In this document: one piece after another, positions 20,462-58,601 of the stretch
Layout: each line of letters starts with the position of its first letter
Numbering within the stretch: the first letter of the stretch is position 1
From: Escherichia phage PECP20
Direction: 5' to 3' (one strand)
Sequence record: OQ873415.1
Length of the DNA: 64,000 nucleotides
Made by a program: the position numbers and the translations under genes
Notes under the pieces: generated by a model
What the model saw: only the letters and a program-made list of their open reading frames with translations
What the model was told of the DNA's origin: nothing
The model's database searches: none

Positions 20462-20490
20462 ATAATATCATGTTTGAAGCACATGTAAAC
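20462..20490 (-). promoter_or_regulatory. Early (sigma70-type) promoter: -35 GTTTAC, 17-nt spacer, -10 TATTAT
   Basis: Minus strand GTTTACatgtgcttcaaacatgaTATTAT; upstream of ORF 20207-20422. Confidence 0.55.
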
Positions 20491-20517
20491 TGTTTTGTGA
20501 GAAAAAAATGCACAAAA

Positions 20518-20533
20518 GGGAGCTTCGGCTCCC
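20518..20533 (-). terminator. Rho-independent terminator after gene 52
   Basis: Minus strand GGGAGC-CGAA-GCUCCC followed by UUUUGUG. Confidence 0.6.
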
Positions 20534-20609
20534 TAATCATGTTTGTCCAACCAATACAGCCAAATCACTAGTGCAGCTATTGCACCGAGAAATCCTAAGG
20601 CTAGGGCAC

Positions 20610-21935
20610 TCAAAGTGCCTCCAAGTCTTTAGTGTACTCTGACACAACATCAGTAGACTTCCAATACTCATTTTCTTCTTTCTTAGCTTTAGCTTCTTCT
20701 GCTAGTTTACGTGCTTCGTCAGAAGTGATATGGAAGATGTTAAGACCTACCAATTTATCGATATGTTCTTTATACATTTCGATTTGTGCTAGCTCTTCAG
20801 TCAAAGCTTTACGAGTCTTGCCTTGAATCACAATTTCGCCACTGATAACTTTTTTGATGAAGTGTGCCTTAGCAAAAGCCAGTTTAAATGCTTTTTCAGA
20901 TTCAATGATTTTGTTATCAATACGTTTCTGAACGTAAGTCTTACGGACTTCAACAAAATCTTTGATTAAGTCCACTACGTTATCGTAGACCGTTAATTTA
21001 CCCTTTTCATTAATCACTGTGATGTTTTGTGAACGACGTTCGATGAGACTAAAATCTTTCATGATTTTTTCATGACGTAGCTCTTCATCATCAGGAAGCG
21101 AGTACTCTTTACGGAACTTCACCTTAAACCCAAAACCGTGTTCACCACAATCATCTTCCCATGAGATTAGACCTTTGTCTTCCAACGGGTCAAGAACCTT
21201 ACTCACATACGTTTCACGGTCGAATTTATATGGGATTTCAGTTATCTGCATTTGAGTGCGAGATGTGAACTTATATGTTCCGTGAATCTCATAACGCCCA
21301 TCAACTTCATGCACTTCACCGCGGAATTCCGGGAATTCAACTTTTGGTTTAGTGACATTTTTACCTTGAAGAGCTTGTAATACAGCCTTTTTGACCGATT
21401 TAAAACTATGAGGCAGAATATTTGTTGCGTAACCGGTTGCAATACCAGAGACACCGTTCAAAAGAACTGTCGGAATAATAGGAAGATAGAATTTTGGTGG
21501 AACGTGTTCTTTATCTTCATGAGCTGGAGCATATTCGGTATCTTTATAGACATTATAGAAATTTTTGCTTACACGAGCAAAAATATAACGAGATGCTGCA
21601 GCTTTTTGGACTGTTCGAGAACCAAAGTTGCCTTGACCATCTAATAGTGGATAGTTGTTATTCCATGTGTTAGCCATCAATGCACCTGCATCTTGTGCAG
21701 AAGATTCACCATGGTGATAACCTAAATCTGCAACACCGCCTGCAATTGACGCAAGTTTATGAAATTTTTCTTTATTACCACGAGCCAAATCTAATGCACG
21801 ATGAACCACAAAACGTTGAACCGGCTTAAATCCATCAATCATGTTTGGGATTGCACGGTTTTCAACGGTGTACATAGCATATGCTAAGGCTTCGTTATCA
21901 ATAATACTTTTTAGATTACGAGAATTCAATTGCAT
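20610..21935 (-). CDS. 52: DNA topoisomerase II medium subunit gp52
   Basis: 441 aa (T4 gp52 442 aa); GyrA-like N-terminal region with YAMYTVENRAIP... and active-site Tyr context. Confidence 0.9.
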   Translation of the reverse strand: MQLNSRNLKSIIDNEALAYAMYTVENRAIPNMIDGFKPVQRFVVHRALDLARGNKEKFHKLASIAGGVADLGYHHGESSAQDAGALMANTWNNNYPLLDGQGNFGSRTVQKAAASRYIFARVSKNFYNVYKDTEYAPAHEDKEHVPPKFYLPIIPTVLLNGVSGIATGYATNILPHSFKSVKKAVLQALQGKNVTKPKVEFPEFRGEVHEVDGRYEIHGTYKFTSRTQMQITEIPYKFDRETYVSKVLDPLEDKGLISWEDDCGEHGFGFKVKFRKEYSLPDDEELRHEKIMKDFSLIERRSQNITVINEKGKLTVYDNVVDLIKDFVEVRKTYVQKRIDNKIIESEKAFKLAFAKAHFIKKVISGEIVIQGKTRKALTEELAQIEMYKEHIDKLVGLNIFHITSDEARKLAEEAKAKKEENEYWKSTDVVSEYTKDLEAL

Positions 21936-21939
21936 ATTT

Positions 21940-22080
21940 TCACCATATTAATGAACGAATAACCATTATAACATCTGAAATGAAAAGCACTACTTGGATT
22001 AGTCCAAACATCACACCGTAGTACAGAATCGTAAACAACAACAAGAGCCCGAAGGCTCCTGCTAAGATTTTCTTAATCAT
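21940..22080 (-). CDS. small hydrophobic protein (46 aa), T4 ac/stp position
   Basis: Hand-translated: MIKKILAGAFGLLLLFTILYYGVMFGLIQVVLFISDVIMVIRSLIW; ATG overlaps upstream stop (TAATG); below ORF-track size cut-off. Confidence 0.35.
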   Translation of the reverse strand: MIKKILAGAFGLLLLFTILYYGVMFGLIQVVLFISDVIMVIRSLIW

Positions 22081-22226
22081 TACTCGCCTTTTAACACGTT
22101 AAGAAGAGCTAAGACCGCTAAGGTACCTTGTGATACGGCCTGTTGAAATACCGTTGTTTCGCCTGTAACTAAAGTGTTAACGAATAAAAACGACCAACAC
22201 AACAATGCAATAATCCATGATACCAT
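22080..22226 (-). CDS. small hydrophobic protein (48 aa), T4 ac/stp position
   Basis: Hand-translated: MVSWIIALLCWSFLFVNTLVTGETTVFQQAVSQGTLAVLALLNVLKGE; below ORF-track size cut-off. Confidence 0.35.
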   Translation of the reverse strand: MVSWIIALLCWSFLFVNTLVTGETTVFQQAVSQGTLAVLALLNVLKGE

Positions 22227-22278
22227 TTTAATTACCTCACAAATAAATTAAAGGCCTAACTTAATAGGCCTGTATAAA

Positions 22279-22725
22279 TTAGTAACTCTGCAGAATAAAT
22301 TTGAAATTATCTGCCAGAAGACGGTTCATTTCAGTGAGTGTTTGATATTCTGATGTATGGTTGCGAGTGAATGCCAGAGCCAATTGACCTTTACCATAAC
22401 CAGTAGTCAGGGGTTTCATGTTCTTGGCTGAAACAAAGATTACGTCATATTCAATATTATTAGTGCCCATGGTACGGGCTAGTTGCGAACGGCCTTGACG
22501 AATGTGAGAAAGAATTGCATCCAACCCTTGTTTAGAACGTTGACGTCCTACAAAGAATCGTGCTGCTACTTGTCGCCAGTCAGATGAACCTTTAACAAAG
22601 AAGTAAAAACCTTCACGAGAACGAAACTCTTTAGAAACTTCAGAACCGTATTCGCCATTACGAACTACTGCAACAACTTCACCGCCAACTGCCAGAAGGT
22701 CTTTACGAGTTAAATATTTGGACAT
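22279..22725 (-). CDS. ndd: Nucleoid disruption protein Ndd
   Basis: 148 aa; C-terminal half (RQRSKQG...SHIRQ.RSQLART...[38 protein letters not shown]) matches T4 Ndd as recalled. Confidence 0.8.
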
Positions 22726-22801
22726 GCTAATTTCCTCAATTGATTAATGTTTTTGTAATCCATGAGAGCATTATACTCTGCTCTCAAGAGTTTGTACAAT
22801 T

Positions 22802-30853: not shown

Positions 30854-30880
30854 ATTCTATCATCCGAAATCTAAAGCAAA
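30854..30880 (-). promoter_or_regulatory. Middle (MotA-dependent) promoter for gene 39: MotA box TTTGCTTTA, 12-nt spacer, -10 TAGAAT
   Basis: Minus strand TTTGCTTTAgatttcggatgaTAGAAT; matches (a/t)(a/t)(a/t)TGCTT(t/c)A consensus; ~20 nt upstream of gene 39 ATG. Confidence 0.45.
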
Positions 30881-30882
30881 AA

Positions 30883-30894
30883 GGGCCGAAGCCC
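30883..30894 (-). terminator. Terminator hairpin whose U-tract overlaps the MotA box of the gene 39 middle promoter
   Basis: Minus strand GGGC-UUCG-GCCC followed by UUUUUGCUUUA. Confidence 0.5.
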
Positions 30895-31317
30895 TTATTT
30901 AAATTTAATTTTCTGAAGTGCATCAATTGCAGCCAAACGCCCTTGTTCACTTTTAACCGTAATGACCACATCACCTGATACGATCACTGAACCATCAACA
31001 AATTCTATAGAGCCTTTTTTGAAATCGACAGCTGTATCTGATTCCGGAACTTCTTCAAAGAATTTAAATTCTGCACCATAAATCAGAATATCACCTTGCA
31101 TACTAATGATTGTACGTCCAGGTCCATCGGTTTCAGCGGCAATCATTGAAACACCGTAGCCAATCATCTCTTCTACAATAAAATCTCTTGATAATAAAAC
31201 TGTATGCAGAGTAGTGTTAAGACGTTTACCAGTTGTATTAAGAATTCTCAAGAAATTATCTTCTTGACCTTTGATAATACGATATTTCTTACCAACTTCA
31301 AAACCTTTAAAAGCCAT
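30895..31317 (-). CDS. hypothetical protein (39.1/goF region)
   Basis: 140-aa ORF; terminator hairpin directly after stop. Confidence 0.5.
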   Translation of the reverse strand: MAFKGFEVGKKYRIIKGQEDNFLRILNTTGKRLNTTLHTVLLSRDFIVEEMIGYGVSMIAAETDGPGRTIISMQGDILIYGAEFKFFEEVPESDTAVDFKKGSIEFVDGSVIVSGDVVITVKSEQGRLAAIDALQKIKFK

Positions 31318-58588: not shown

Positions 58589-58601
58589 AAGTCCCATTGC
58601 T

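Follow-up and report, generated by a model that had tools for sequence, protein, structure and literature searches.

The interval between ndd and gene 52 in a 64,000-nucleotide (64-kb) stretch of DNA from Escherichia phage PECP20 (OQ873415.1), hereafter the window, contains two genuine coupled genes for small hydrophobic proteins. The window is RB69-like Mosigvirus DNA, in which the ndd-to-52 region is transcribed from the minus strand, and the two genes are very probably the Mosigvirus (RB69-type) forms of ac (48 amino acids, aa) and 52.1 (46 aa), known non-essential genes of the T-even phages, with 52.1 probably also taking part in the regulation of the locus. The assignment of the interval is thereby corrected to ac plus 52.1, with stp being absent. 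Apart from encoding its protein, the 141-nucleotide (nt) 52.1 gene also holds a hairpin, a middle promoter and the ribosome-binding site of the next gene. Both are ordinary T-even genes whose annotation in T4 and RB69 goes back about twenty years, and the prediction of the promoter dates from 2006, so that the locus carries little weight as a discovery; the regulatory steps proposed below are predictions from sequence. What appears to be modestly new is a small detail, namely that the position of the hairpin in 52.1 is conserved across lineages in unrelated sequences, and that a hairpin persists where the 52.1 open reading frame (ORF) is absent.

The first gene, ac, occupies 22080..22226 on the minus strand (48 aa, ATG start; ORF list and phrog_2501) and is preceded by the Shine-Dalgarno sequence GAGG at 22235..22238, which was read directly from the sequence 8 nt 5' of the start codon. 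The second, 52.1, occupies 21940..22080 on the same strand (46 aa, ATG start). The two share a single nucleotide in a TAATG stop/start overlap at 22078..22082, with the TAA of ac at 22082..22080 and the ATG of 52.1 at 22080..22078, an arrangement that suggests translational coupling. A preliminary description of this locus, made from the letters of the window, had noticed two coupled mini-ORFs of 48 and 46 codons with this very overlap, and the ORF list and our reading of the sequence bear it out; its placement of the end of the second ORF at the gene 52 start is off by only 4 nt, as the TGA of 52.1 at 21942..21940 is followed by the spacer AAAT and the gene 52 ATG at 21935. As 62 ORFs of 25 aa or more overlap the 5-kb stretch around the locus, the length of a frame alone proves no gene, and the case for coding comes from conservation. 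Over the 401 bases around the locus, Escherichia phage CCU7 shows 100% identity and many Mosigvirus (RB69-like) genomes show 95-98%; the records of several of the latter label the locus 'acridine resistance protein'. Phages HX01 and RB69 have Ac and gp52.1 annotated with an identical layout between ndd and 52, RB69 with the same 1-nt overlap, and tblastn searches over phage records recovered matches to gp52.1 in 723 and to Ac in 243 of them. Both frames are conserved in related genomes, which is the point on which the preliminary description had staked its claim.

The product of the first gene matches the Ac profile phrog_2501 (E 4.5e-22, residues 2-48 covered) and is 98% identical to the annotated Ac of HX01, 70% identical to the annotated Ac of RB32 and 32-37% identical to T4 Ac (BLASTP, 37% over 35 aa, E 2e-7). 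A conserved core, C-W...V-F-x-Q-A-x-x-Q-G (the QAxxQG motif), is common to the window and T4 proteins, and G34 of the window Ac, which corresponds to G38 of T4, is invariant in an alignment of four sequences. When the codons are compared with those of RB32, the proportion of synonymous differences (pS) is 0.81 and that of nonsynonymous differences (pN) is 0.20, with 9, 5 and 24 differences at the first, second and third codon positions, respectively. The N-terminal span of the protein is strongly hydrophobic, and its second helix less so; an AlphaFold2 model computed without an alignment places helices at residues 2-21 and 25-47 (predicted local distance difference test score, pLDDT, 78), in agreement with a published model of T4 Ac that likewise has two helices (bioRxiv 10.1101/2025.06.30.662393). 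In T4, loss of ac leads to acriflavine resistance and expression of Ac sensitizes E. coli (bioRxiv 10.1101/2025.06.30.662393; also cited in PMC13250531), and the single substitution G38R in Ac likewise results in acridine resistance (bioRxiv 10.1101/2025.06.30.662393). The authors of that work propose that Ac blocks AcrAB-TolC efflux (bioRxiv 10.1101/2025.06.30.662393), and this proposed disabling of a host efflux pump makes Ac a protein of current interest. By extension from T4, the window Ac would make the infected cell accumulate acridines, putatively through the same block of efflux via AcrAB-TolC. The two alleles are alike in their position after ndd and before 52.1, in size class (48 aa in the window and 51 aa in T4), in the predicted two-helix build and in the core that includes the resistance-linked glycine. 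They differ in that the window Ac is without four N-terminal residues and that the window ac overlaps 52.1 by 1 nt (TAATG) as opposed to 8 nt in T4; furthermore, the acridine phenotype was established with the T4 allele. In the Tequatrovirus RB32 (L055, DQ904452, 883-1038) the ac allele is 70% identical in aa sequence to that of the window, versus 37% for the T4 allele, and its GenBank note describes it as 'more similar to RB69'. This closeness of the RB32 gene to Mosigvirus ac suggests that ac alleles have been exchanged between genera.

The product of the second gene matches the Pfam family DUF7396 (PF24129; E 3e-22, 79 bits against a cut-off of 27), with its residues 1-46 aligned to positions 1-46 of the profile, as well as phrog_3595 (E 3.9e-22), and it is 70% identical to T4 gp52.1 (E 5e-18). 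Sequence searches of NCBIfam and PDB returned nothing usable for either peptide. The protein is hydrophobic along its full 46 residues, and AlphaFold2 without an alignment models it as one continuous helix spanning residues 2-45 (pLDDT 96), a model that is compatible with either one long helix or a two-span hairpin. The products of both genes are very small inner-membrane proteins; the preliminary description of them as peptides with a single transmembrane span holds for their hydrophobicity, but is approximate in view of the second helix of Ac and the uninterrupted hydrophobicity of gp52.1. In comparison to T4 gp52.1, the length of 46 aa, the 4-nt spacer to gene 52, the overlap of the start with the preceding ORF and a MotA-type promoter embedded at the same place are shared, whereas residues 7-19 are unrelated in sequence, and in the RNA of this part the window has a single long C(UUCG)G hairpin as against two shorter tandem hairpins in T4. 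We take gp52.1 to be a low-abundance membrane peptide, with its gene possibly doubling as a regulatory spacer before gene 52; as a more speculative reading, gp52.1 could anchor the membrane-associated gp52 subunit to the membrane.

To place the two genes in context we drew on IMG/VR for the surroundings of gene 52 at 48 loci and sorted the small ORFs lying between ndd and 52 by family. The comparative picture that emerges is of a modular cassette of tiny membrane-protein genes, with 52.1 as its constant last member. The cassette comprises up to five tiny genes, namely those of a 57-60-aa family, stp, Ac (43-52 aa), a 52-55-aa family and gp52.1; its members apart from stp are genes for hydrophobic proteins, and their combinations vary by presence and absence. 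In all 34 loci that have the gp52.1 ORF it comes last and adjoins gene 52, is 44-46 codons long and encodes a protein that is hydrophobic throughout; in the same 34 it begins within the end of the small ORF before it, with a start/stop overlap of 1, 4 or 8 nt irrespective of the family of that ORF. The window holds a minimal cassette of Ac and gp52.1. In more distant phages the cassette is replaced by another family of small ORFs or by nothing. Neighboring genes of the cassette (loci L011-L034) mostly overlap or abut at their stop and start codons, and the 57-60-aa family shows strong internal hairpins of -12 to -16 kcal/mol in 9 of its 10 distinct sequences, as opposed to none of 18 Ac ORFs.

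The hairpin within 52.1 lies at 22039..22064 on the minus strand (nt 17-42 of the ORF). On the plus strand its core reads GAGCC (22045-22049), CGAA (22050-22053) and GGCTC (22054-22058); in the messenger RNA (mRNA) this becomes GAGCC-UUCG-GGCUC, a UUCG tetraloop closed by a C:G pair, and the stem extends to 11 pairs (22064..22039). The preliminary description had correctly seen a GC hairpin inside the second ORF, with its core one base off, at 22046-22059 instead of 22045-22058. The structure has a folding energy of -17 kcal/mol (z = -3.8), a value reached by 0 of 200 dinucleotide shuffles, and a terminator scan flags it as terminator-like with a U-rich tail: UUGUUGUUGUUU follows the 5-bp core and UUGUUUACGA the 11-bp stem, the U-run being interrupted by a G.

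As membrane helices draw heavily on Gly, Ala and Leu codons, the hairpin might be a functionless by-product of coding for one. The same peptide was recoded synonymously 2000 times with each phage's own codon usage, and the native sequence proved more stable than all 2000 recodings for the window and T4 alike (p 0.0005 each); the sequences of three further lineages, L024 (p 0.0035), L035 (p 0.0085) and L015 (p 0.012), were also outliers. Consistent with a by-product are the sequences of L020 and L012, which are no more stable than their recodings (p 0.16 and 0.31, respectively), those of L011 and L032, which are without a hairpin, and the occurrence of strong internal hairpins in another small-ORF family of the cassette. 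Apart from the recodings, three observations speak against a by-product. Firstly, in the T4 group the synonymous sites of the stem are either invariant or change so as to preserve pairing, while those of the loop vary. Secondly, the 52.1 hairpin of RB69 has retained its stem with a changed loop, UUAG. Thirdly, a folding energy of -10 kcal/mol or lower is reached by 22 of 27 52.1 ORFs but by none of the 18 Ac ORFs of similar composition. Hence, the by-product explanation is already disfavored, and we regard it as highly improbable. Moreover, in 12 T4- or Dhaka-type sequences the two tandem hairpins are paired in 100% of 156 cells, including one compensatory pair, in contrast to 24-60% pairing in shifted registers.

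The sequences that form the hairpin are unrelated between lineages: GCAGGAGCC-UUCG-GGCUCUUGU in the window, GGGCUA-UUCAU-UAGCCC in T4, GCGGCC-UUAGU-GGCCGC in L020, GUGGCAGC-UAUU-GCUGCCGC in L024 and UAGCCAUC-CUUGU-GAUGGCUA in L035. Its center nevertheless falls at nt 26-32 of the ORF in several of them, and it begins 17-22 nt after the A of the 52.1 AUG in five lineages (17 nt in the window). With this spacing, a ribosome sitting on the 52.1 AUG would have the hairpin at its leading edge, and it is conceivable that the hairpin works as a translational device, which either holds ribosomes that have finished ac at the 52.1 start or limits fresh initiation there, thereby setting the ratio of Ac to gp52.1. 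The universal stop/start overlap would suit such a device, as would the poor equipment of 52.1 for independent initiation: that of T4 has no Shine-Dalgarno sequence and that of the window only AAGG, for which reason reinitiation is the likely route into 52.1. On the other hand, the hairpin does not need an adjacent start codon, as among eight loci that lack a 52.1-like ORF five show one all the same, intergenic and 20-70 nt upstream of gene 52; this ties the hairpin to the position before gene 52 rather than to the ORF. The hairpin of L015 also lies about 25 nt deeper in the ORF, and similar hairpins elsewhere in the window are intergenic, some of them with U-runs. A translational role for the hairpin thus seems to us unlikely.

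The 52.1 hairpin belongs to a class of C(UUCG)G hairpins that punctuates the genome in the window. Eight such structures with stems of at least 5 bp are found on the transcribed strand, several followed by U-runs, with 5' ends on the minus strand at 58598, 47913, 46158, 40334, 30896, 24401, 22064 and 3573. Six of the eight lie outside ORFs of at least 60 aa if the 52.1 hairpin is counted among them, 52.1 being shorter than 60 aa; for the others the count is five of seven. UUCG hairpins were first described in T4 mRNA (PMC4371310). With the C(UUCG)G hairpins of T4 and with intrinsic terminators the window hairpin shares the extra-stable tetraloop, the C:G closing pair, the G+C-rich stem and the U-rich 3' sequence; unlike them, it lies inside a translated ORF and has an interrupted U-tract, and its role in termination is predicted. 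The TransTerm predictions for RB69 are limited here to the hairpins that follow ndd and gene 52 (PMC1524935 supplement). In the literature we found neither an earlier description of a hairpin inside 52.1 nor published T4 transcript ends mapped at the ndd-52 locus, and an Rfam search of 21500-22800 with E values up to 1 yielded a single chance match to a small nucleolar RNA, with no family covering the hairpin. Phages Lutter and fPS-90 have a 'terminator' feature annotated within the equivalent short region of their own genomes. A sigma-70-type promoter directly 3' of the hairpin, as annotated in Lutter, was considered for the window and rejected, there being no convincing -10 element here. Elsewhere in the window the hairpin at 30896..30881 is directly followed by a MotA-type match at 30878..30854, the same arrangement as in 52.1.

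The promoter within 52.1 lies in the 3' third of the gene at 21965..21989 (minus strand), where a pattern match finds TGCTTTT, 12 nt and TATAAT (21989..21965), in accordance with the layout of a MotA box and a -10 element; the motif looked for was (a/t)(a/t)(a/t)TGCTTtA with a TAnnnT -10 some 12 bp downstream of it. The box, the 12-nt spacer and the TATAAT are those of the MotA/AsiA-dependent middle promoters of T4, from which the window element differs in that the last base of the box is T where the consensus has A, and in that its start site is predicted: a transcript from it is expected to begin near 21958. The window contains 14 matches to TGCTT-N14-TANNNT as against 4.05 expected from shuffles, none of 100 shuffles reaching 14, and 9 of the 14 matches are on the minus strand. 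Of 13 lineages, 12 have the same element in an identical position, its -10 ending 25 nt before the end of the ORF. Nolan et al. 2006 predicted this promoter in RB69 as Pm:164206 by means of a profile hidden Markov model (PMC1524935 supplement), and the promoter inside 52.1 is thus not new. A MotA box, TGCTTTA, in the tail of the first T4 hairpin was considered and set aside for want of conservation among T4-type phages; the box that lies 50 nt beyond it is preferred. GGUGA at 21940..21944 (minus strand) was read from the sequence as the Shine-Dalgarno-like ribosome-binding site of gene 52; it is formed by the final sense codon of 52.1 and the stop that follows (UGG UGA) and lies 4 nt before the gene 52 AUG.

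Since the hairpin, the MotA box, the -10 and the ribosome-binding site fill much of the 141 nt, it might be asked whether ORF 52.1 is merely a regulatory spacer that stays open by chance, with the apparent conservation of its protein being really that of signals in the DNA. The best-conserved residues of gp52.1, (V/L/M)LF and V(I/M)(M/V/I/L), which belong to the motif (V)LF-ISD-VIM, are indeed encoded by the MotA box and the -10 in every lineage. Related phages without the ORF keep a hairpin, and some also a promoter-like sequence, in a shorter non-coding spacer. Furthermore, the T4 deletion saDelta9, which removes 52.1, ac, stp, ndd, ndd.1-6 and denB, is viable and still gives 50% of the wild-type yield; it also abolishes the post-infection stimulation of phospholipid synthesis (PMC6071114). 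Against such a spacer, the segment YYGVMFGLIQ, which lies between the hairpin and the MotA box, is the same in the window and T4 despite synonymous change in 7 of its 10 codons, which implies that gp52.1 is selected as a protein too. Over codons 20-46 the window and T4 genes differ with a pS of 0.65 and a pN of 0.06, and across the whole ORF there are 10, 9 and 24 differences at the three codon positions. A chance frame would also hardly be expected to remain open, hydrophobic, start-overlapped and 44-46 codons long in every one of the 34 loci, and the variable N-terminal part changes in sequence yet remains a hydrophobic helix. We therefore consider the spacer explanation very unlikely; the patterns of substitution indicate that ac and 52.1 alike are under purifying selection as proteins.

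With ac and 52.1 taken as protein-coding genes that also carry these signals, the following scheme can be proposed. Early transcripts would begin upstream of ndd, cross ndd and be thinned at the hairpin that follows it. The remaining transcripts would express ac by means of its own GAGG ribosome-binding site, and ribosomes finishing ac would restart at the overlapping 52.1 AUG. The C(UUCG)G hairpin situated 17 nt into 52.1 would then act on most early transcripts, as a partial intrinsic terminator or as a stabilizer of the 3' end, closing the early ndd-ac unit. Gene 52 would be driven mainly by the MotA/AsiA-dependent middle promoter and translated from the ribosome-binding site made by the last 52.1 codons. 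A further elaboration would make 52.1 a translation-gated switch, in which the start is fed only by ribosomes from the upstream ORF, coupled translation blocks the hairpin and allows readthrough into gene 52, and untranslated transcripts stop; we think this quite unlikely. It is an old observation that delayed-early transcription in T4 needs protein synthesis, and a translation-gated 52.1, if real, would be a concrete cis element for that need.

Several points weigh against the proposals made above. The U-tail is weak evidence for termination because of the G that interrupts it, and U-richness is in any case expected from the codons of a membrane helix. A terminator inside the ORF would yield truncated 52.1 messages, which would be wasteful unless termination were partial, and in L020, L012, L011 and L032 there is no hairpin beyond the recoding level. 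As the motif LF...VIM falls on the MotA box and the -10, part of the conservation of gp52.1 may be that of the promoter, which calls for caution wherever its apparent protein conservation is invoked. The block of efflux is a preprint proposal on a T4 Ac that is only 32-37% identical to the one in the window. Finally, it is from the sequence that we infer transcript ends, promoter use and the translation of either peptide.

Stp, the 26-aa activator of the host PrrC anticodon nuclease, is the product of a tiny early gene. The preliminary description had it that T4 has ac and stp in this position; the counterpart of ac stands, but the gene order in the T4 record is ndd, stp, ac, 52.1 and 52, and the second ORF is 52.1. 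Position is all that would recommend either ORF as the counterpart of stp, which in T4 lies between ndd and ac. Stp is hydrophilic, has 26 residues ending in ...GVFGR and is nearly invariant where present in the loci that we fetched; neither ORF resembles it, a motif search found nothing stp-like in any of the six frames of the 64-kb window, and the ndd-ac spacer is only 52 nt long and is occupied by a hairpin. The chance that one of the two ORFs is a counterpart of stp is practically nil, and this candidate identity was rejected, given also the matches of gp52.1 to DUF7396 and to T4 gp52.1. RB69, the type Mosigvirus, likewise has no stp between ndd and ac. In T4 stp is, as ac and 52.1 are, a tiny gene of the ndd-52 interval, and its 3' end encodes a CUUCGG hairpin; unlike them, it does not encode a membrane peptide, has no sequence similarity to the product of ac or 52.1, and is not in the window. 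The hairpin at the 3' end of T4 stp (L004, 4006-4086) is perfect, GGCGUC-UUCG-GACGCC, and is read in frame as G-V-F-G-R, while the window 52.1 hairpin is read in frame as G-A-F-G-L; in both genes the UUC of the loop is a Phe codon.

All neighboring features that follow are on the minus strand. The upstream neighbor, ndd, encodes the nucleoid disruption protein (148 codons, 22279..22725; Pfam Phage_T4_Ndd, E 2e-89; phrog_1102, E 1.4e-56) and opens the early transcription unit; upstream of it there is a match to an early-type promoter at 22798..22770, the counterpart of the RB69 prediction Pe:165022. The ndd-ac spacer (between 22279 and 22226) contains a terminator-like hairpin at 22252..22271, AGGCCU-AUUAAG-UUAGGCCU followed by UUAAUUUAUU, which was detected by the terminator scan; its RB69 equivalent is the terminator that TransTerm predicts as 'ac<--ndd' (PMC1524935 supplement). 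Where the window has this hairpin, T4 has stp with its own CUUCGG hairpin. The downstream neighbor, gene 52 (441 codons, 20610..21935), encodes a subunit of the T4-type DNA topoisomerase II (phrog_551, E 4.7e-217; Pfam DNA_topoisoIV, E 2.6e-78). Its stop codon is overlapped by the TTG start of a 26-aa hydrophobic ORF (MSALALGFLGAIAALVIWLYWLDKHD) at 20533-20613, which is annotated as the hypothetical D299_gp206 in HX01; T4 has motA.1 at the same place. Directly 3' of this ORF a hairpin with a U-run at 20517-20534 corresponds to the RB69 TransTerm terminator 'motA<--52', and it is followed by a match to an early-type promoter at 20462-20489.

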